From an uncultured Rhodospirillales bacterium (GTDB taxonomy: Bacteria > Pseudomonadota > Alphaproteobacteria > Rhodospirillales > UBA2165): a stretch of 64,000 nt of DNA. How positions within the stretch are numbered: position 1 is the first letter of the stretch; each line of letters begins with the position of its first letter. The notes under the pieces were generated by a model that made no database searches, was not told the DNA's origin, and worked only from the letters and a program-made list of their open reading frames with translations. The position numbers and the translations under genes were made by a program. Positions 12,939-39,214 of the stretch are shown in pieces. The DNA lies in the NCBI GenBank assembly GCA_905614355.1, contig CAJQSN010000014.1, positions 10,276 through 74,275 of the forward strand, given 5' to 3'.

Positions 12939-14993
12939 ATGAATAATACGGATAACAAATTACTTTCTTCGCTTCTCCTAGAATCTAATATTGATCAATC
13001 TGCAGAATCCATCATTGAAATTATTAAAGGTGTTGCAGCAGGGCCAACGCCAGAGAGCTCTACGGCTGTCTCTAACGCCTGGCTTGAGCTTATATCGCCA
13101 GACATGACAGAAGCTTTAGTTGAACTATTAAATGCTGAATTAGAGAGGTTTATATGCATTGACGATGGATTAAATAATAATCTAGGTTCTAAATCTTTTA
13201 ATGGAAGGCTTGCCGACCTTCGCCGCGAAATCAAAGCCAGTGAAATTTCTGGTTTCATAATTCCTTTGGCAGATGAACACCAAGGCGAATATGTCCCCAA
13301 AAATGCCCAAAGGTTAGCATGGCTTACGGGGTTTACAGGTTCTGCGGGAATAGCCGTTGTTCTTGAAAAGAAAGCTGCTATTTTTATTGATGGCCGCTAC
13401 ACATTGCAGGCGCAGCAACAAGTAAATCAGAATTTATTTGAAATCAATGATTTGAATATCAACGCTGTTGATGATTGGATAATAGCATCACTAGTCCCTG
13501 GAAACATACTTGGATTTGATCCTTGGCTACATACTTCTGATGGTGTTGTTAAAATTAAAAAAGCAACGGAAAAGGCCGGTGGTAAACTAAACGCTATCAA
13601 AAAAAACCCCGTCGATACAGTCTGGCAAAATAGACCACGGGCTCCTCTTACACCCGTCATGGTAATGGATTATGCTCTTACAGGGCAAACTTCCGCAGAC
13701 AAACGAGCCGAAATTTTAGAAATATTAAAAAAAGAAGATTTAAAATCATGCGTCCTTACGGCCCCAGATTCTATCGCTTGGCTGGCTAATATTCGCGGGA
13801 GTGACGTACCATATACGCCCTTTTCCCTATCCTTTGCGATTTTTTATGCTGATGGTAGTCTTAATATTTATAATGATACTAGAAAATTTTCCATAAGAGT
13901 GCGTAAAAAATTAGAAGTAGGCATCTCCATATTTCCCCGTAATAATTTTCTACCCACGCTCAGTGCCCTAGGAAAAAAGAATGAAAAAATTGGTATTGAT
14001 CTCTCATCTTCAGCGGAAATCATTGTAAAAACCCTAAGAGATGCCGGTGCGCAAATACATAGATTTTCTGATCCTTGCCAACTACCGAAAGCTAGAAAAA
14101 ATTCAGTTGAGTTGAATGGTATGAGGCAAGCCCATCTGAGGGACGGCGTCGCGCTGGTAAAATTTTTAGCTTGGCTAGACAAAAACTCGCCAAATGGCAA
14201 TCTAACAGAGTTATCTGTTGCAGATAAATTGGAGAGCTTCCGTCGAAAAGGGAATAACATAAAAGGTTTAAGTTTCCCAACAATATCTGGAAGTGGTCCA
14301 AATGGGGCCATTGTTCATTATCGTGTAACACAAACAAGTAATCGTAAGCTCGAGAAAAACTCTCTATATCTAGTGGATTCTGGAGCTCAGTATCTAGATG
14401 GTACTACCGATGTAACCCGGACAATCTCTATTGGCACGCCGAGCCCTGAAATGAAGGATCGTTTTACTAGGGTTCTTAAAGGTCATATAGCATTAGCAAT
14501 GGCGGTTTTTCCAAAAGGAACTTGTGGATCACAACTTGATGCACTCGCACGCGCACCACTCTGGAAAATTGGTCTGGATTATGAACATGGAACGGGGCAT
14601 GGAGTTGGAAGTTATCTAAGCGTTCATGAAGGACCTCAACGGATCTCAAAATTGCCTAACCGAATAGCGCTTGAGCCTGGCATGGTGGTGTCAAATGAGC
14701 CTGGATATTACAAAACAGATGCATACGGAATTCGAATTGAGAATTTAGTTGCGGTTGTAAAGGCACCAGAAACACTAGTAGCTTTGAACGTCGACCAACA
14801 ACCTTTTTTATGTTTTGAGACACTAACTTTAGCACCAATAGACCTAACACTGGTAAAAAAAAACCTCCTAAGTTATGCGGAGATTAATTGGTTAAATGAA
14901 TATCATCGAAGAGTTAGAACCTCACTACTGCCCTTATTAGACAAAAAAACACAAAATTGGCTTGAGTTTAATTCTAGAGACTTAGATACCTAG
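12939..14993 (+). CDS. pepP: Xaa-Pro aminopeptidase (aminopeptidase P, M24B) with an N-terminal extension
   Basis: M24 metal-ligand motifs: YLVDSGAQY..GTTDVTRT, HGTGHGVGSYLSVHEGP and SNEPGYY..G.RIEN. The creatinase-like N-domain starts near RLADLRRE. About 85 extra residues precede it. Confidence 0.85.
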   Translation: MNNTDNKLLSSLLLESNIDQSAESIIEIIKGVAAGPTPESSTAVSNAWLELISPDMTEALVELLNAELERFICIDDGLNNNLGSKSFNGRLADLRREIKASEISGFIIPLADEHQGEYVPKNAQRLAWLTGFTGSAGIAVVLEKKAAIFIDGRYTLQAQQQVNQNLFEINDLNINAVDDWIIASLVPGNILGFDPWLHTSDGVVKIKKATEKAGGKLNAIKKNPVDTVWQNRPRAPLTPVMVMDYALTGQTSADKRAEILEILKKEDLKSCVLTAPDSIAWLANIRGSDVPYTPFSLSFAIFYADGSLNIYNDTRKFSIRVRKKLEVGISIFPRNNFLPTLSALGKKNEKIGIDLSSSAEIIVKTLRDAGAQIHRFSDPCQLPKARKNSVELNGMRQAHLRDGVALVKFLAWLDKNSPNGNLTELSVADKLESFRRKGNNIKGLSFPTISGSGPNGAIVHYRVTQTSNRKLEKNSLYLVDSGAQYLDGTTDVTRTISIGTPSPEMKDRFTRVLKGHIALAMAVFPKGTCGSQLDALARAPLWKIGLDYEHGTGHGVGSYLSVHEGPQRISKLPNRIALEPGMVVSNEPGYYKTDAYGIRIENLVAVVKAPETLVALNVDQQPFLCFETLTLAPIDLTLVKKNLLSYAEINWLNEYHRRVRTSLLPLLDKKTQNWLEFNSRDLDT

Positions 14994-15265: not shown

Positions 15266-16677
15266 ATGAACAATAAACTGCAAAAGAAAAAATCTGCTAG
15301 CCCAATCTGGGGGGGGGGCGTTTTGACGGCAGTCCATCGGAAATCATGGAACAAATTAATGCTTCTATTAATTTTGATAAAAGGTTGTATTCACAAGACA
15401 TAACTGCATCAAAAGCTCATGCCGCAATGCTTGTTAAACAAAAAATTATCTCCGCTAAGGATGGGAATGAAATTAAAGGGGGACTGGATCAAATCTTTAA
15501 TGAAATCGAAAACGGTTCATTCGAGTTTAAAACCACTCTTGAAGACATCCATATGAATATTGAATCAAGGCTTAAGGAAATAATTGGTGATGCGGCTGGA
15601 AAACTGCATACTGCTAGGTCAAGGAATGATCAAGTTGCGACAGATTTTAAACTTTGGGTCAGACAGGAACTAGATCAATTAGATAGTGCATTAAAAATGC
15701 TACAGGAAACTTTCATTAATCAGGCAGAGGACCACGCATCAACCATATTGCCGGGCTTTACTCATCTTCAATCAGCCCAACCCGTTACTCTTGGTCATCA
15801 TCTGCTCGCATACGTTGAGATGATCGGCCGGGATAGAGGTCGAATTAAAGATTGCCGAAGACGCTTAAATGAAAATCCACTAGGCTCTGGCGCTTTAGCT
15901 GGAACATCGTTTCCTATTGATCGAGATGCAACGACAATAGCCCTTGGTTTTGATCAACCTACGTCTAATTCATTAGATGCCGTGTCTGACCGCGACTTCG
16001 CTCTCGAATACCTATCATTGGCGTCAATTTTATCGGTTCACCTCTCTAGGCTAGCAGAAGAAATCGTCGTCTGGGCAAGCTCACCATTCTCTTTTATTAA
16101 TTTACCCGATTCTTTTTCAACCGGCAGTTCTATGCTTCCGCAAAAAAGAAATCCTGATGCAGCAGAACTAATACGTGCTAAAACAGGCCGAGTAATAGGT
16201 AATCTAACGAGCCTCCTCATTACAATGAAAGGTTTACCCTTAGCCTATAGCAAAGATATGCAAGAAGACAAAGAATCAGTCTTTGAGACGGCGGATACAT
16301 TGGCCCTAACGGTCAAGGCAATGACTGGGATGTTTGGAGAAATAACCTATAATATTGATAAAATGTTAGCTATGGCCAAAAATGCAAATTCCAACGCGAT
16401 CGATTTAGCAGACTGGTTAGTTAAAGAACTGGATAAACCATTCCGCGAGGCACATAGTATTAGTGGTAAACTGGTCAAACTAGCAGAAAAACAAAACATA
16501 TCTCTAGAAAACCTATCCCTAACCGACATGCGAAGAATAGAACCGGCTATCAATGAAGGTGTTTTTAACGTCCTTAATATTAATACTGCTTTAAACGCAC
16601 GAAGCAGTTTTGGTGCTACGGCACCAAAGAATGTTAGAAAAGCTTGCACTCAAGCGCGTCGCAAGTATCTTAAATAA
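15266..16677 (+). CDS. argH: argininosuccinate lyase; the 5' end is frame-disrupted inside a G10 tract (intact ORF only from 15346)
   Basis: ORF 15346..16677 has lyase-1 motifs ([30 protein letters not shown]). The conserved N-terminal WGGRF box is encoded upstream, but it is split between the frame of ATG 15266 ([18 protein letters not shown]) and the frame of the main ORF ([15 protein letters not shown]). Confidence 0.85.
15309..15318 (+). repeat. G10 homopolymer at the argH frame break
   Basis: Counted directly: ctGGGGGGGGGGcg. Confidence 0.95.
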
Positions 16678-29154: not shown

Positions 29155-29691
29155 ATGAAACTTTCCAAGACTACAATTAAGACAAGCGGCAACGAGAAGG
29201 CCAATAATAAAGCTGATCTACTGTTAGATGATGAAACTCGTGGTTTTGGTATTAGGGTCTACCCGTCCGGTCGCAAGTCTTTCTTTGTGTATTACCTAAA
29301 TAGCTCAAAAACAAAGAAGCGTAATCACGTATTTCCTACACTCGGTCTTAGGAAACTAGCGGAAATTACCATTCGACAGGTTCAGAACATCCAGACTTCC
29401 ATTAAAAAGAAGCTATGCCCTTCAACAGCCAACCGAGTTACTAGATTGATTAAGCAATTATTCATTGTGGCAGATAAATGGTTCCTGATTGCTGAAAATC
29501 CCTCAGAACATTTAACAATGTTCCGTGAGCCAGCACCAAAAGATATTGTTCAATCGCCAGAAAATTACCGTAAGTTAATAGATGGTTATGACAAAGATGA
29601 TCACTTATTCTACTTAATGTACTTCTTTATAACGAGCGAGTGGAATTTGCGAGGTAAACCTTTGACCGCGCAGGGTCGACCTGTTATTTAG
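29155..29691 (+). pseudogene. tyrosine integrase (P4-like), N-terminal fragment only
   Basis: An arm-binding DUF4102-type N-terminus (LLDDETRGFGIRVYPSGRKSFFVYY) and part of the SAM-like core-binding domain. The frame ends where the catalytic domain should begin. Confidence 0.8.
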
Positions 29692-29735
29692 CAAATGGTC
29701 AAAAGGTTATTTGAAAATATGCAGGATTCTGCTTG

Positions 29736-30872
29736 ATGTACGAACCCACAAAACATCCAAGAAATAAGATCTTCACTTATTGGATTGATATTGTCGGCAC
29801 CTGCAATTTGAGATGTCCAACTTGTCCAACAGGTAATTTTTTAGATTCTGAATTTTCTGTTGGACGCAACCCGACCGGGTTTATGGATCAAGACCTTTAC
29901 AAAAAAATTCTTGAAAAGATAAAAAGCGATAACGTATCGGACCGAATTGAAATTCACCTGTATACTTGGGGGGAGCCATTGCTCCACCCAAAAGTAGCAG
30001 AGTTCGTGACTATGACTAAAAAAATGGGTTTTTTCTGTGGACTTTCCAGCAATCTGAATTTAGACAAGAATCTGAAGGAGGTTGTCAAAGCTGGCCCTGA
30101 CTTTTTCCGAATTTCGCTATCTGCATTTTATCAGGGCAACTACAAATTAACACATAAACGTGGTGATATTCGGATAGTTAAAAGTAACATGTACCGATTG
30201 AGAAATTTACTCGACCAAAACAAAAGCAATATAACGGTGCAGGTACTTTATCATGTTTACAAGCATAATGCGAGTGATGATCTTGCGATGATGATGAAAT
30301 TGTGTGAAGAATTGGAGTTTGATCTGGATCCTGTGTGGGCGTTTTACATGCCGTTAGAAAAGAGTTTGGATTACCTGAATGGAAAAGTTTCCGATGAGGA
30401 TAAAAAAACCATAAATATGCTCGCGATGGACCCAACCGATGTCTCGAAAGCGGCCCTACCCTACAGGGATGAAGACTGTAGTCTTCGAAAAACTCAAGTT
30501 ACGCTCAATATTGATGGGTCAGTTCAACTTTGTTGTGCCACCTTTGATCAAGCCTATGTCGTGGCCCCGAGTTTTATCGATACTCCTCATGCAGAATTAC
30601 AACGGCGGCGCTATTCAAATGACATGTGCGGACCTTGTATGGATAAAGGGCAACACATTTATTTCAGTTATGCCGTTGGTAAAAAACTAGATGATTTAGG
30701 CGAACAAAATTTAAGTAAAAAAGATTCCAAATTTATTTTTAAACAATTTTCAAAACCCAGTTTGGTTCTCAGAAGTAGCGAGAATGCCGACCCAATTGTG
30801 CTCCCACGTGCAGCAAAGAAAAAACAAGGTCTCAGTTTGTATCGTTTCAAGAATAAACTTCTTGGCAGGTGA
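29736..30872 (+). CDS. radical SAM protein with a partial SPASM/twitch-type C-terminal Cys motif
   Basis: CNLRCPTCP (CX3CX2C) at residues about 24-31, a GEPLL glycine-rich motif, and a C-terminal CX12GX4C (CSLRKTQVTLNIDGSVQLC) followed by CGPC. Confidence 0.85.
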   Translation: MYEPTKHPRNKIFTYWIDIVGTCNLRCPTCPTGNFLDSEFSVGRNPTGFMDQDLYKKILEKIKSDNVSDRIEIHLYTWGEPLLHPKVAEFVTMTKKMGFFCGLSSNLNLDKNLKEVVKAGPDFFRISLSAFYQGNYKLTHKRGDIRIVKSNMYRLRNLLDQNKSNITVQVLYHVYKHNASDDLAMMMKLCEELEFDLDPVWAFYMPLEKSLDYLNGKVSDEDKKTINMLAMDPTDVSKAALPYRDEDCSLRKTQVTLNIDGSVQLCCATFDQAYVVAPSFIDTPHAELQRRRYSNDMCGPCMDKGQHIYFSYAVGKKLDDLGEQNLSKKDSKFIFKQFSKPSLVLRSSENADPIVLPRAAKKKQGLSLYRFKNKLLGR

Positions 30873-31137
30873 CTTCTGGGATCATTTGTTTGACGCTATC
30901 GGTTACATGTCTGCCTTTGGCTATTAGGGGTCTCTTGCCGCATCTTTGGAGTAGTATTCAGCCTTTGGCGTAATTCATAACACACCTCATTTGAAAAAAA
31001 ATAGTAAAATATTTAAAGAAAGCCGGGCCTAAATGAACTAAATTGACTGGGAATTGAGTTATTTAATTCAATGAACAGTTAGTATATTATTACCTCTACA
31101 TTGCCGTTATTTTAATAATATTTTACAGTAGAATTTC

Positions 31138-32184
31138 ATGAAAAAATTTATATTTGCCGCCCTGTCCATAATCCTTGCATCCGTTATTTCGGTGTTTGCC
31201 ATGGAATATGTCGTCCGAATGGCTATTCCCGCATACGACCCTTCCGGTCATGTGAAATTTGTTGTCGGCAAAGCCTCTACAATGGAACAAGTCGGCTACC
31301 CCTTAGATCAAATTGGTCGCCCAGATTCAGTACAGCGACAAATAAAAAATACTGGGGATTATGATGTCCTTATTCGATTTAACAAATATGGGTTTAGAGA
31401 CACCAAAGATCTGTCCGAATCAACGCCCAAAGATTTTTTTGTACTGGGAGATTCATTAAGCTTTGGGTGGGGAGTAGACGCAGATAAAAACCTTTCCGAA
31501 CAATTGGGAAAAATTACAAAAATACAATTTTATAACATCGGCATTCCAGGTGACTTAGTGTTTCAAAAAACCCTCATAGATTACGCTAAAAAAAAAGGTG
31601 CATCTATTAAGAACCTGATCATTCTATTTAGCAATGAAGTTCGTTTAAAAAATTATGAAAAAAAAACCGTGATTAAGGCCTCTATGGAAACGGGTTCTAG
31701 TCTTATGAGCGTGAAAATGTATTTGATGTCTCATTCTGCATTATATTTTCTTGTCACATCCTTTATCCATCGCACTCCAACTCTCAAACAAATTGCTGTC
31801 GATTCAGGCTTTCTCATCCCGAATTTAGAAGGCTTTCAAGAGCGCGAATATGATCCCTTAGCCGTCAAATCATCATCTCGCAAACTCGCGAATATTGCCA
31901 AAGATTATGCATCGTTAGTCGTCCTATCTCCCTCTCGTGGGATATGGTCCGGCACTAAAAGGGAATCTGTGAAGAAAAATCATACTGAGCTCATTCGAAG
32001 CCTAGAGAACTTGGGCGTAAAGGTATTAGACTTGATCCCCGCGTTTGAAAAAGACGGTGCCCCGCTACAAAAATTTTTCAAAAATGATGGCCATTGGAAA
32101 GCTGAGACGCATGTCTTAGTTGCAAAACTGGTGGCCCAATATATAAAAAATTATCCTGCTATCTTTCCGCTCAGCAAGCCTTAA
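31138..32184 (+). CDS. membrane-anchored SGNH/GDSL hydrolase-family protein
   Basis: An N-terminal TM segment (FIFAALSIILASVISVFA), block I FFVLGDSLSFGWG and block V NDGHW. It is a paralog of the next gene (RFNKYGFRD versus RTNKNGMRG). Confidence 0.75.
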   Translation: MKKFIFAALSIILASVISVFAMEYVVRMAIPAYDPSGHVKFVVGKASTMEQVGYPLDQIGRPDSVQRQIKNTGDYDVLIRFNKYGFRDTKDLSESTPKDFFVLGDSLSFGWGVDADKNLSEQLGKITKIQFYNIGIPGDLVFQKTLIDYAKKKGASIKNLIILFSNEVRLKNYEKKTVIKASMETGSSLMSVKMYLMSHSALYFLVTSFIHRTPTLKQIAVDSGFLIPNLEGFQEREYDPLAVKSSSRKLANIAKDYASLVVLSPSRGIWSGTKRESVKKNHTELIRSLENLGVKVLDLIPAFEKDGAPLQKFFKNDGHWKAETHVLVAKLVAQYIKNYPAIFPLSKP

Positions 32185-32281
32185 CCTGCTAGCTAAAATT
32201 GAAACATGATGTTAACAATAATTTACTATGATTTCAGAGCGTCTTTTACAGGCCTCATTTTTTTCATAGAGTGTGATTACG

Positions 32282-33252
32282 ATGAATGAAAATACAACAA
32301 AGTCGATAGTTTTTAGCATAATAGTCACGGCAATAACGCTGGTATTCTGCTTGTTTGCAGCCGAGGTTTTACTGCGTGTAAAAAACAGCGATGGGAAAAA
32401 TTATCATATTGAGATGTGGAAATATTCACGTGATCTCAAGCAAGCATCACAAAACCCGATTCTAGGTCACGAGCATCTCCCCAGCAGCCAAGCCAAATTG
32501 CAAAATGTAATTATTCGCACCAACAAAAATGGAATGCGCGGGGCAGCAATTACGCCTGTTAAAAGTGGCCAGCGTAGAATTTTATTACTCGGCTCCTCGG
32601 CGACACTGGGGTGGGGAGTCGAAGAAGAAGAGACGATGTCCTCTCGTCTACAACTTAGCCTTGGAGAAGGGGCCGTTGTGATGAATGCTGGTATCGGTAA
32701 TTATAATACCAAGCGATATGTTGAACTATTTTTAACCAAGAACAGGAATGTTACCCCAACAGATATTATTGTGAATTACTACCTCAATGATGCTGAAGTC
32801 CTTAAACCTGGAGGGGGGGGGTCCTCATTCGTAATAGTGAGCTTGCGGTTACTTTTTGGATTTTATTTAACCGTTTCTTCTCTAAAACCGGTGAGGATGT
32901 CCTCCTCAATCACTACAAAGCGATTTATGATCCTGAATTCAAAGGTTTGATAGAGATGAAACAATCGCTCAAGAACCTGGCCGATTACTCTAAACGTCAC
33001 AACATAAACCTTATCCTTATGATGATGCCTGAGGTTCATGATCTAAAAAATTATAAATATCAATTTGCACATGATATTATGGCTAAGACTGCTAAGACAT
33101 TAGGTTATAAATTTGTGGATGGGTTGCCCGCATTGCAGGATGTTAAATCAAGCCAGGATCTTTGGGCCATGCCAGGAGATCCACATCCAAACGCCCTGGC
33201 TCACAATCTATTCGCTGATGCTGTCTATCTTTTTTTGATGAATAAGAAATAA
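32282..33252 (+). pseudogene. membrane-anchored SGNH hydrolase paralog, split by a frame break in a G9 tract
   Basis: The upstream frame has an N-terminal TM segment and blocks I-III (LLLGSSATLGWG, NAGIGNY, NYYLNDA). The downstream frame is open from the G tract and carries block V (GDPHPNALAH). One extra G would fuse them into about 327 aa. Confidence 0.75.
32813..32821 (+). repeat. G9 homopolymer at the SGNH frame break
   Basis: Counted directly: ctggaGGGGGGGGGtcc. Confidence 0.95.
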
Positions 33253-33261
33253 CTCAGGTAA

Positions 33262-34668
33262 GTGCTTTTTACCTCCAACATATTTCTCTATGCATTTTTG
33301 CCAGCAGTGGTAGCTCTGTTTTTTGTTCTGGCGCGAGCGGATCACAAAACACGGATTGCAATTTTATTCTTAATCTTAAGTTCCTTTATTTTCTACGGCT
33401 ATAAAAACCCCGCAAACATCACATTGTTGATGGGGTCTATTTTGGGCAATTTTGCACTCGCCTCTCAAATTCGTCGCCACCAGCAAAAAGCAGCTATTTT
33501 TATACTCGGGATTCTCTTCAATATTGGAATACTTGGCTACTTCAAATACACCAATTTTCTATTGGAGAATTTTAGTTTAATTTCTGGCGACAGTTATACC
33601 CCTCTTTCTATTGCTTTACCGCTGGCAATCTCATTTTACACTTTCCAACAAATTGCTTTTCTCGCCGATACCAAGAATGGAGAGATTGGGGCCGTTTCCT
33701 TTCGAGATTACATGTTATTTGTCACCTTCTTCCCTCAACTCATCATTGGACCGATTGTCCATCATAAAGAGATGATGCCTCAATTTTCTATGGCAAATTT
33801 TGGGCGTTTTAATTGGCAAAATTTTCAAACTGGATTTTGCTACTTAATGAGCGGGGTGATAAAGAAAGTTTTTCTATCTGATGCATGCGCACTGGTCGTT
33901 AACTCCGTGCATGGTGACATTGGCAATGGGGTGAGCATAGGGTTTGCTGATGCATGGGTTACCGCATTTGCGTTTTCACTCCAGATATATTTTGATTTCT
34001 CTGGTTATACTGATATGGCCATTGGAATTGCTAAAATGCTTGGCATTGACCTGCCTTTTAATTTCAACTCGCCCTATAAGGCTAGGAATGTCGGCGAATT
34101 TTGGCGACGCTGGCACATTACATTATCCCGATGGCTACGTGATTACCTCTATATACCATTAGGAGGCAATCAGTCGGGGTTTAAACGTACTGCGATTAAT
34201 GCAGTTATTGTTTTTTTACTCGGCGGCCTCTGGCATGGTGCTGCATGGACCTTTATCGCCTGGGGATTGGTGCAAGGCATTGGGGTTGTATGGGCTCATT
34301 TGTTGAAAACATTGAAAATATGCCTTCCTACATCAATAGCCATTTTATTTACATTTATTTTCATCACTCTCTCGTGGGTATTATTCCGCGCTCAAAATTT
34401 GGAAAATGCGTTAGACCTTTATAAAGTGATGAGCGGCGTGCAAGGTTTTGACTTAACCTTGAGAGAGAGCATTAACCTACCAGTTATGGCAATCGGTGTA
34501 GTCATAATTTTCGGTTTGCCCAATTCACATACCCTAGTTCCATGGCTTCAAACACGTATAGCAAACCTTCCAACAGCGCCCGTTGTGGTCGTCATGGTAG
34601 TCTCTTGGTTAGCCCTCGCAGCTTTCGATCTCGATAGCTCGGCAGCTTTTATCTATTTTGATTTCTAA
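33262..34668 (+). CDS. MBOAT-family membrane-bound O-acyltransferase (AlgI/DltB/PatA-like)
   Basis: A typical N-terminus (MLFTSNIFLYAFLP), a polytopic membrane protein, FWRRWHITLS..WLRDYLYIPLGG and the catalytic-His region GGLWHGAAW. The start is GTG. Confidence 0.9.
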   Translation: MLFTSNIFLYAFLPAVVALFFVLARADHKTRIAILFLILSSFIFYGYKNPANITLLMGSILGNFALASQIRRHQQKAAIFILGILFNIGILGYFKYTNFLLENFSLISGDSYTPLSIALPLAISFYTFQQIAFLADTKNGEIGAVSFRDYMLFVTFFPQLIIGPIVHHKEMMPQFSMANFGRFNWQNFQTGFCYLMSGVIKKVFLSDACALVVNSVHGDIGNGVSIGFADAWVTAFAFSLQIYFDFSGYTDMAIGIAKMLGIDLPFNFNSPYKARNVGEFWRRWHITLSRWLRDYLYIPLGGNQSGFKRTAINAVIVFLLGGLWHGAAWTFIAWGLVQGIGVVWAHLLKTLKICLPTSIAILFTFIFITLSWVLFRAQNLENALDLYKVMSGVQGFDLTLRESINLPVMAIGVVIIFGLPNSHTLVPWLQTRIANLPTAPVVVVMVVSWLALAAFDLDSSAAFIYFDF

Positions 34669-34824
34669 TTGTATAATAAGGTCGAATAGAAGAAGGCCTC
34701 AATCAACCGCTAATCGCTCAAAAAAAGGAATTTAATGTTGGCAGATGGATGGAAATCGAGTAAGTCAACTTAAAGTTCTGGCGCCCTTCAGCCTAACTCT
34801 GTTAGCCAACTGTGAGAAATATCA

Positions 34825-34980
34825 ATGATGATATCTTTTTTTATAGAATTTTTTGAATTTTTAAAAGCTCGAAAGAAATTTTGGTTAATGCCAATTATGG
34901 TGGTCATGTTTTTTCTTGGTGGGCTGATTTTACTGACCCAGGGCACTGCTGTCGCTCCGTTCATCTATACAATATTCTGA
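34825..34980 (+). CDS. DUF5989 / SxtK-like small membrane protein (51 aa)
   Basis: Hand translation gives MMISFFIEFFEFLKARKKFWLMPIMVVMFFLGGLILLTQGTAVAPFIYTIF. This closely matches the family pattern I recall (..LRxRKKxWLxPI......LGGLIVLTQGSAVAPFIYTLF). It is absent from the ORF track (under 60 aa). Confidence 0.7.
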   Translation: MMISFFIEFFEFLKARKKFWLMPIMVVMFFLGGLILLTQGTAVAPFIYTIF

Positions 34981-35001
34981 GTTTGCTGGGCTAGTGTAGA
35001 G

Positions 35002-35439
35002 GTGAAAATGGTAATAGATAATTCCCACGAGAAAATAGGTCGATCCGCTGAGATTAAAAGTGGTTCTAATCGTGCCTTTGGCGTTGTCTTTGCTATAGTC
35101 TTTTTATTGGTTGGCCTATTTCCACTTATAAAGGATGACCCTATACGTCCATGGGCTGTCATAACCGCCATAACTTTACTCGTAATTTCCCTTACCGTCC
35201 CAAGTATTTTATCACCGTTTAATTGGATCTGGTTTAAGTTTGGGCTCCTTCTCCACAGAATTATCTCCCCGGTCATAATGGGCATATTATTTTATCTAAT
35301 AGTAACCCCAATGGCCCTTATTATGGGCATTTTAGGCAAACGCCCATTATCCCTCTCATTTGACAAAACGGCTAAGTCCTATTGGATCCATCGAGATCCT
35401 CCCGGCCCGGAGCCAAAATCAATGGAACGTCAATTTTGA
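35002..35439 (+). CDS. SxtJ-family membrane protein
   Basis: 145 aa with three predicted TM segments. The SNRAFGVVFAIVFLLVG start, the size, and the position between DUF5989 and a carbamoyltransferase match the SxtJ-like family. The start is GTG 35002 or ATG 35008. Confidence 0.65.
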   Translation: MKMVIDNSHEKIGRSAEIKSGSNRAFGVVFAIVFLLVGLFPLIKDDPIRPWAVITAITLLVISLTVPSILSPFNWIWFKFGLLLHRIISPVIMGILFYLIVTPMALIMGILGKRPLSLSFDKTAKSYWIHRDPPGPEPKSMERQF

Positions 35440-35536
35440 AAAATAGGATTAAATGGGTGCTCTTTTTAAAAAAGGTAATTTTCATTGATCTACTTTAACT
35501 ACATTTATATTTCTATTTTTTTAGAGAGAGTTTAAT

Positions 35537-37372
35537 TTGCGTATTCTTGGAATTTCAGCCTTTTATCATGATAGTGCTGCTACGCTTATTGAAGATGGTA
35601 GAATCATTGCTGCAGCTCAGGAAGAGCGTTTTTCGCGAATAAAACAAGATGCCAACTTTCCAATAAGAGCTATCGAATATTGTCTGGACGAATCTGGCGG
35701 CGCTCTCACAAACATCGATTATGTTGCATTCTATGATAAGCCTTTTCTGAAATTTGAAAGGCTCCTGGAGACTTACCTTTCCTTTGCTCCCAAAGGATTC
35801 GAATCTTTCAACAAGGCCATGCCAATTTGGCTGAAAGAAAAGCTTTTTCAAAAAGATATGCTCCGAAAAGAGTTTAGAAAAGTCGATGCTAATTTTGACT
35901 GGCAAAACAAACTCCTTTTCACTGAACACCATCAAAGCCACGCCGCCAGTGCTTTTTTTCCCTCCCCATTTGAAGACGCTGTCATCTTAACCATGGATGG
36001 GGTTGGGGAATGGGCAACCACTTCAGTGGCAATAGGTTCAGCCAATAAGCTAAACGTCACCAAAGAGCTTCACTTTCCTCATTCTCTAGGCTTACTTTAT
36101 TCTGCCTTCACCTACTATACGGGTTTTAGAGTGAATTCAGGAGAGTACAAAGTCATGGGCCTTGCACCTTACGGTGAGCCCGTTTACGCCCAGAAAATTT
36201 TAAATAATATCATTGATCTCAAAGAGGATGGTAGTTTCAGATTAGATCAATCCTATTTCGATTATTGCACGGGCCTGCGTATGACTAATGAAAAATTTGA
36301 TCATTTATTTGGTGGACCAGCTCGTAAATCAGAAGACTTACTGACAGACCGTGAAATGAATTTGGCCGCTTCTATTCAAGCTGTAACAGAAGAGGTAGTT
36401 CTGCGCTTAACCCGATCCTTAGCGAAAGAAACAAATAGCAAAAATCTCTGCCTTGCTGGAGGTGTTGCACTCAACTGTGTGGCCAATGGCAAAGTATTAA
36501 GAGATAACGCATTTGAAAATATATGGATTCAACCGGCAGCAGGCGATGCGGGGGGCGCGCTTGGTGCGGCTTTAGCAGCCTATTATGTATATCAAAATCA
36601 GCCTCGCGAACGGACGGAATCTAGAGATACCATGCAAGGGGCGTATCTTGGCCCATCTTTTTCCGATGAGGATATTGTTGAAAGGCTAGAGAAAATTGGC
36701 GCGATCGTCGAGCGCCACAGCCTTGACGAGATGACAAACATTGCCGCCCAAGCTCTGGCAGATGGAAAAGCTGTCGGCTGGTTCCAAGATCGGATGGAAT
36801 TTGGTCCAAGGGCTTTAGGAAACCGTTCAATATTGGGTGATCCTCGATCATCAACAATGCAGAAAACACTCAACCTTAAAATTAAATACCGAGAATCCTT
36901 TAGACCTTTCGCTCCCTCGGTCAGGCGTGAAGATGTCGCTGACTGGTTCGATATGGATACAGATAGTCCCTATATGCTGCTAGTCGCCGATGTAGCAAAG
37001 AAGCGCCAAATTAAAATGAGCGAAGCAGATCAAAAGCTATTCGGCATTGAAAAATTAAATGTTAAGCGCTCGGAAATACCTGCGGTCACTCATGTCGATT
37101 ACTCAGCGCGGATTCAAACAATAGAAGCTGAAATAAATCCGAAATACCATACCCTTATCACCCGGTTTAAAGAACTGACCGACTGTCCTGTTGTCGCTAA
37201 TACCAGCTTCAACGTCCGAGGGGAGCCAATCGTTTGCGCTCCGGAAGATGCCTTCTACTGCCTGATGGGTACAGAGCTAGATATGTTGGCTATTGGAAAT
37301 TGTATCCTCAAAAAAGAATCCCAGAACCCAGAATTAAAGCTCGACTATAAGGACGCATTTGAACTGGATTAA
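35537..37372 (+). CDS. carbamoyltransferase (NodU/CmcH/TobZ/SxtI family)
   Basis: N-terminal MRILGISAFYHDSAA, EHHQSHAASAF, GGVALNC and a C-terminal domain with NTSFNVRGEPIV. The start is TTG. Confidence 0.9.
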   Translation: MRILGISAFYHDSAATLIEDGRIIAAAQEERFSRIKQDANFPIRAIEYCLDESGGALTNIDYVAFYDKPFLKFERLLETYLSFAPKGFESFNKAMPIWLKEKLFQKDMLRKEFRKVDANFDWQNKLLFTEHHQSHAASAFFPSPFEDAVILTMDGVGEWATTSVAIGSANKLNVTKELHFPHSLGLLYSAFTYYTGFRVNSGEYKVMGLAPYGEPVYAQKILNNIIDLKEDGSFRLDQSYFDYCTGLRMTNEKFDHLFGGPARKSEDLLTDREMNLAASIQAVTEEVVLRLTRSLAKETNSKNLCLAGGVALNCVANGKVLRDNAFENIWIQPAAGDAGGALGAALAAYYVYQNQPRERTESRDTMQGAYLGPSFSDEDIVERLEKIGAIVERHSLDEMTNIAAQALADGKAVGWFQDRMEFGPRALGNRSILGDPRSSTMQKTLNLKIKYRESFRPFAPSVRREDVADWFDMDTDSPYMLLVADVAKKRQIKMSEADQKLFGIEKLNVKRSEIPAVTHVDYSARIQTIEAEINPKYHTLITRFKELTDCPVVANTSFNVRGEPIVCAPEDAFYCLMGTELDMLAIGNCILKKESQNPELKLDYKDAFELD

Positions 37373-39137: not shown

Positions 39138-39214
39138 TGGTAGCGGAGGAGAGACTTGAACTCCCGACACCCGGATTATGATTCCGATGCTCTAACCAGC
39201 TGAGCTACTCCGCC
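39138..39214 (-). tRNA. tRNA-Met (anticodon CAT; elongator Met versus Ile2/lysidine not distinguishable by eye)
   Basis: The reverse complement is GGCGGAGTAGCTCAGCTGGTTAGAGCATCGGAATCATAATCCGGGTGTCGGGAGTTCAAGTCTCTCCTCCGCTACCA. It folds as a 77-nt cloverleaf with a 7-bp acceptor stem, a GCTC/GAGC D stem, an ATCATAA anticodon loop, a GTTCAAGT T loop and an encoded CCA. Confidence 0.9.

Follow-up and report, generated by a model that had tools for sequence, protein, structure and literature searches.

A split SGNH gene in a conserved cassette

The window, by which we mean the whole 64-kb stretch of DNA that was analysed, carries a same-strand cassette in which a membrane-anchored SGNH/AlgX-like gene is followed by a second gene of the SGNH type, split by a run of nine Gs, and then by a gene for an MBOAT membrane O-acyltransferase, with the MBOAT start located 10 nt past the SGNH stop (Table 1). 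An MBOAT gene adjacent to a membrane-anchored SGNH partner is the arrangement of the MBOAT/SGNH pairs, and the MBOAT is the probable partner of the SGNH proteins encoded here. Systems that combine an MBOAT with an SGNH protein for the O-acylation of extracytoplasmic polymers include AlgI/AlgJ/AlgX, PatA/PatB and DltB/DltD. The cassette resembles these systems in that two N-terminally anchored SGNH-type genes are followed immediately by its MBOAT gene, but the split gene shows weak or no sequence similarity to AlgX or DltD, and the cassette also includes radical SAM, SxtJ-like, DUF5989 and carbamoyltransferase genes. Because of the pairing of MBOAT and SGNH, it is reasonable to propose O-acylation of an extracytoplasmic glycan as the role of the cassette.

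The same order of genes (348-aa SGNH-like, 323-aa SGNH, MBOAT, SxtJ-like, carbamoyltransferase) is also found in further contigs from marine metagenomes (L013-L018), in which the 323-aa gene is intact, and the cassette shares 87.6% nucleotide identity with contig L013 over 5.1 kb. Judged by sequence comparison, the segment from 31138 to 37372 is a conserved unit. The cassette is flanked on one side by the truncated N-terminus of a tyrosine integrase and on the other by tRNA-Met, and these two features around it are consistent with a decayed genomic island.

The G9 run, its position read directly in the sequence of the 64-kb window, is exactly nine bases long. The upstream reading frame starts at ATG 32282 or, less likely, at GTG 32273; it ends within the gene as ...NDAEVLKPGGGG / ...YYLNDAEVLKPGGGG and then continues out of frame until a stop at 32950. 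The -1 frame is uninterrupted between the G tract and the stop at 33252 and reads GGVLIRNSELAVTFW...WAMPGDPHPNALAH..., with GDPHPNALAH in its later part. The frames on both sides of the run are two halves of one gene of about 323 aa with an SGNH fold, and they would be fused by ten Gs (323 aa) or by seven (322 aa). The original prediction had stated that a G9 tract splits an SGNH gene and that ten or seven Gs would unite the frames, and both statements are borne out by the sequence and by the two frames. It had also regarded the split gene as a paralog of the upstream gene, but a close paralogy is not supported: the two are distant relatives that share 26% identity across 133 residues at the N-terminus (E = 8e-7).

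There are two G/C runs of at least seven bases in the window, namely the G9 run of the SGNH gene and a G10 run in argH, and about 0.01 such G runs are expected by chance in random sequence of the window's length with a G content of 18.3%, in agreement with the earlier claim that a G9 run is improbable at this composition. The contrast that had been drawn between A and G tracts was likewise reproduced in a check of the open reading frames: the A9 tracts at 14855, 31588, 31658 and 52501 lie in frame within long ORFs, whereas neither of the two long G tracts keeps the frame.

Table 1. Features of the cassette and its flanks, and G/C runs of at least nine bases in the assembly (positions without a prefix refer to the window)
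Feature	Position	Strand	Run	Description
Truncated tyrosine-integrase N-terminus	29155..29691			Arm-binding and central domains only
Same-strand cassette	29733..37372	+		radical SAM, two SGNH, MBOAT, DUF5989, SxtJ-like, carbamoyltransferase (Pfam)
Membrane-anchored SGNH/AlgX-like, 348 aa	31138..32184	+		PF16822 ALGX, E = 1e-6; distant relative of the split gene
N-terminal SGNH part	32282..32821	+		membrane anchor, block I (GSSATLGWG), NAGIGNYN, YLNDAE
G9 homopolymer, breaking the SGNH gene	32813..32821	+	G9	covers codons of the conserved Gly-Gly-Gly motif
C-terminal SGNH part, -1 frame	32821..33252	+		VLIRNSE...GDPHPNALAH...stop; invariant D300-P-H302-P-N motif
MBOAT membrane O-acyltransferase (DltB/AlgI-like)	33262..34668	+		PF03062, E = 5.8e-31; TIGR04091 DltB, E = 1.3e-48, below cut-off
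tRNA-Met	39138..39214			other flank of the cassette
Gene-breaking run, nuoG	C13:12347-12355		G9	8 fits CDQGGECDLQ; cut inside PF10588 (Pfam)
Gene-breaking run, argH	15309..15318	+	G10	8 fits; across the conserved WGGRF box
Gene-breaking run, ammonium transporter (amt)	C28:25762-25773		G12	11 fits HWIWGGGF
Gene-breaking run, AMIN/beta-barrel outer-membrane protein	C25		C10	
Gene-breaking run, HlyD-type (RND) adaptor	C41		G10	
Gene-breaking run, GST	C78		C9	
In-frame runs	C52:43448-43457; C62:10771-10779; C99:7426-7434			
Runs in the last few codons of an ORF	C37; C109			
Runs in non-coding sequence or directly before a start codon	C48 (two runs); C69; C112			

For the 323-aa protein read through from ATG 32282, 1019 homologs were found at E <= 0.001; with few exceptions they are 320-340 aa long, and the best share 88% and 72% identity with it. 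PF13472 (GDSL-like) matches the read-through protein across the tract, over residues 103-308 (E = 7e-5), with a score of 23.8 bits that is below the Pfam gathering cut-off of 32.9 bits; the separate halves gave no Pfam match. The alignment of homologs reveals G104, S106, N135, G137, N140, D170 and D300-P-H302 as invariant residues, with a final motif of the form D-x-H as compared with the canonical D-x-x-H. The tract itself encodes a motif, situated past the NDAE block and ahead of the helix that follows, with the consensus L-x-x-G-G-G-N-[FV]-L-I-R-N-S, in which G177 is invariant and G179 nearly invariant, and which has the same length in all 17 of the aligned homologs.

The AlphaFold model of the intact 88% ortholog, rather than of the broken gene in the window, has a pLDDT of 90.4 and presents an alpha/beta/alpha SGNH fold after a long N-terminal helix (residues 3-37). 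Foldseek assigned this ortholog model a probability of 1.0 to many SGNH structures, TesA and acetyl-xylan esterases among them. The top match, CgnD (8a2n; E = 2.5e-11, TM 0.59-0.63), belongs to crocagin biosynthesis and is placed ahead of the TesA-type esterases as a structural neighbor of the ortholog. The split gene is best explained as one for a membrane-anchored SGNH-fold esterase or acyltransferase. Because the catalytic-type D300-P-H302 motif is carried by the downstream half, the N-terminal fragment, as assembled, would not be expected to be active.

The best ortholog of the SGNH gene, at 88% identity, is intact and lies in a syntenic locus. In comparison with it the window gene shows 88.6% DNA identity and a single gap in 972 columns, which falls at the tract; six of the nine tract bases differ between the two, forming the densest cluster of mismatches in the gene. 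At the tract, the orthologs at 88% identity read CCT GGA GGG GGA AAC TTT CTC ATT, which contains a G5, and those at 72% read GGC GGC GGA AAT TTC. Measured against the intact ortholog, dN/dS is 0.15 for the part of the gene that precedes the tract and 0.11 for the part that follows, with no decay downstream of the point at which the frame is lost. An error, a very recent mutation and a reversible switch are all equally compatible with this, and the gene alone does not decide among them. Scans of metagenome contigs with patterns taken from the flanks of the tract, for the SGNH gene as well as for argH, gave no match and no second assembly of the same species, and an exact-product look-up of the broken N-terminal product returned no other record. 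The closest argH among 5.8 billion proteins has 95% protein and 93% nucleotide identity, indicating that it belongs to a different species.

Long G/C runs in the assembly and in its relatives

The assembly comprises 2.0 Mb in 119 contigs, the smallest of 2019 nt, and is estimated to be 57.5% complete and 0.09% contaminated. The number of G/C runs drops about five-fold (to about 0.2-fold) with each additional base up to a length of 7 and then levels off, with 46, 20, 8, 6, 1 and 1 runs at lengths 7 to 12, respectively. Extrapolation of the drop seen at lengths 5-7 leads to an expectation of 2-3 runs of at least nine bases, and 16 are observed: seven break genes, three are in frame, two are unjudgeable, and four lie in non-coding sequence or just before a start codon (Table 1). 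The proportion of judged coding runs that are out of frame, seven in ten, is close to the two-thirds expected if run length is random modulo 3. Under strict criteria, five of six coding G/C runs of at least nine bases break the frame, compared with 2-6% of G/C runs of 5-8 bases, the latter figure representing a background from gene junctions. The long runs show no preference for surface or contingency genes; nuoG, argH, amt, the RND adaptor and GST are hit as well. In the case of amt, the two halves match positions 1-141 and 135-399 of the 399 positions of the Pfam model, placing the cut at about 138. A second amt paralog (59% identity; C52:2059-2766) is intact in the same assembly.

The picture for A and T is different, in that A/T runs of 9-10 bases are nearly all in frame and most of the shift-like A/T cases are ordinary gene junctions. 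A few A/T runs are nevertheless real breaks: an A9 run at C41:25912-25920 splits ppx/gppA, and when one base is removed from this gene, PF02541 matches across the junction.

Relatives go by the name of uncultured marine Rhodospirillaceae or Rhodospirillales. Both nuoG and argH are single-copy in the assembly. Among the 11 congeners searched, nuoG is intact in nine and truncated by a contig end in a tenth, argH is intact in nine, and amt is intact in all 11. Conserved single-copy genes that the relatives keep whole thus show breaks of the same kind as the SGNH gene, which is the pattern looked for under a miscall of run length. At the corresponding sites the codons of the congeners are G-rich but interrupted (CAG GGT GGA GAG, TGG GGT GGT CGT and TGG GGT GGT GGT TTT), and one congener has an in-frame G8 at the argH site. 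The nearest argH ortholog, at 93% DNA identity, reads TGG GGA GGG CGT, from which the argH of the window differs by an A-to-G change plus two extra Gs.

Matches to a G9 pattern occur about 13.5 times per Mb in the draft and 0.3-4 times per Mb in the 11 congeners. Coding runs of at least nine bases in three of the congeners are divided into five that are in frame and three that are shift-like. In a congener assembly that is 98% complete, a G12 run (G001:C8:34730-34741) lies between open frames of 330 and 197 codons, and frame breaks at long G runs are hence not unique to this draft.

Causes of the frame break

We put at roughly 60% the probability that the lengths of long G/C runs are unreliable in this assembly and that the split of the SGNH gene is technical, and we infer this cause from the pattern of the sequences. 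The lengths of long G/C homopolymers would have been miscalled through sequencing, amplification or consensus error, and the gene would then most likely be intact in the organism, with G10 as the true state, reading ...PGGGGVLIRNSE.... Ten Gs is likely to be the true length, because it preserves the spacing of the Gly motif, which is invariant, and gives the length found in every homolog. A surface switch does not predict broken nuoG, argH and amt, while a problem with G/C run length does, and the SGNH split may thus be regarded as one instance of such a problem. Draft, metagenome-assembled and single-cell assemblies with homopolymer errors likewise contain breaks at long homopolymers in conserved single-copy genes, independent of gene function and with the relatives intact; here, in contrast to these, hardly any but the G/C runs of at least nine bases are affected, and A/T runs of equal length are nearly all in frame. 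As the A/T runs of 9-10 bases are nearly all in frame, a general homopolymer problem, such as that of long-read or flow-based chemistry, was rejected, and a G-specific cause is favoured over it. Variation in homopolymer length is a recognised artefact risk in high-throughput data (PMC4746626). Illumina sequencing produces direction-specific miscalls after G-rich motifs, with miscalled bases copying the preceding ones (PMC3141275), and miscalls of this type are a candidate source of the pure G runs.

Several observations do not sit easily with miscalled lengths. In six of the seven broken genes the run seems one or two bases too long, whereas that of the SGNH gene is best read as one base short (G10); a G7 would take a residue out of a stretch whose length is the same in all 17 aligned homologs. 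The error would have to be strongly G/C-specific, and several of the sites are pure G where the relatives are interrupted. Pure G at these sites, together with the six of nine mismatches in the tract, could reflect real growth of the runs. If run lengths were indeed miscalled, any G/C run of at least nine bases in this draft, and probably also in similar low-coverage drafts, would have to be treated as uncertain in length, and the "pseudogenes" at such runs, including nuoG, argH, amt and the SGNH gene, should not be taken as biology.

Long G/C runs are mutational hot spots, and a recent and real slippage without adaptive role, which would make fresh pseudogenes of the SGNH gene and the other broken genes, is a possible but rather unlikely explanation. 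The run is present and of a length that permits slippage, the gene has no lesion other than this break and the absence of decay after it suggests that it is recent, the +2 state of argH resembles a run that drifts after inactivation, and a G12 run between two open frames is found in one congener as well. The loss of a gene is also plausible in a decayed island with a truncated integrase next to tRNA-Met. However, slippage would require simultaneous fresh knock-outs of nuoG, argH, amt and at least three other genes within 57% of a genome, and no support was found for a loss of mismatch repair. Both mutS and mutL are absent from this assembly, and mutS is present in all 11 congeners; however, none of the approximately 25 ORFs that flank mutS in two congeners (a 16-kb neighbourhood) was detected in the assembly in a search that included a positive control. 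With the whole neighbourhood of mutS missing too, the absence of mutS and mutL points to the incompleteness of the assembly and not to loss, and loss of mismatch repair was rejected as a cause of slippage.

Poly-G tracts switch surface-modification genes in Campylobacter, Helicobacter and Neisseria, and the phase-variable poly-G loci of Campylobacter jejuni include capsule, LOS and flagellar-glycosylation genes. In an evolved contingency locus of this kind, slipped-strand mispairing of the G run would toggle the SGNH enzyme on (G10) and off (G9) and vary the acylation of a surface glycan, a scenario that we consider improbable. The G9 run does have the anatomy of a contingency locus, being a slippage-prone repeat inside an ORF in which the gain or loss of one G toggles the frame of a gene for a putative glycan-modifying enzyme of the acyl-transfer type, in a glycan-decoration cassette and beside an MBOAT gene. 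Both halves are under purifying selection, as would be expected if the gene were switched on from time to time; the run is lineage-specific and located in the densest cluster of substitutions in the gene, and a precedent exists in pglI, a glycan O-acetyltransferase gene of Neisseria that is phase variable (PMC5445459). Unlike the known poly-G loci, the present case is found in a free-living marine alphaproteobacterium, and the run covers a conserved Gly motif in mid-gene, at about codon 178 of 323, much as do the accidental runs of nuoG, argH and amt. The long G/C runs of this genome break housekeeping genes just as often as surface genes, with no enrichment in the latter, and the comparison of orthologous loci, which the original prediction had proposed, went against the switch, as the closest orthologs carry a G5 or no run. 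The choice that the original prediction offered, a phase-variable switch or a homopolymer error, is therefore retained in part: the anatomy it gave, one SGNH gene split by a G9 run, is right, and the gene sits in a glycan-decoration cassette, but a dedicated switch, towards which it leaned, is disfavoured by the housekeeping genes that are broken likewise, and these breaks, together with the closest orthologs without a long tract, favour homopolymer error or, failing that, a plain slippage mutation. There is also a small chance that G9/G10 is a genuine O-acylation switch within a lineage-specific expansion of G/C runs, in which many genes, metabolic ones included, would be stochastically variable; the draft contains 3-40 times more G9 matches per Mb than the congeners. 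Should the run lengths prove to be truly mixed, this free-living marine alphaproteobacterium would offer a rare example of homopolymer phase variation, which would be of moderate interest. Very improbable, in our view, is a recoding of the G9 message, with the full-length protein made through an extra G added by slippage of RNA polymerase or through a -1 ribosomal shift. The downstream frame is indeed the -1 frame, and the homopolymer should permit tRNA-Gly to re-pair after a shift, but the other broken genes need opposite or two-base shifts, so that no single mechanism rescues them all, and the run is not conserved in orthologs. We know of no stimulatory element for G runs.

G runs outside reading frames

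Two of the long runs lie immediately upstream of genes. At C69:3285-3293 the sequence AAAAAAGGGGGGGGG-ATG places a G run directly before a gene for a GntR-like regulator, and at C112:15324-15334 a G11-A-ATG precedes a gene for a LigA-domain protein. If these two runs are real, a change in their length would affect the ribosome-binding region but leave the reading frame untouched. A single intergenic region, at C48:17822-17932, contains a C8, a G7 and a G9 run clustered within 110 nt.
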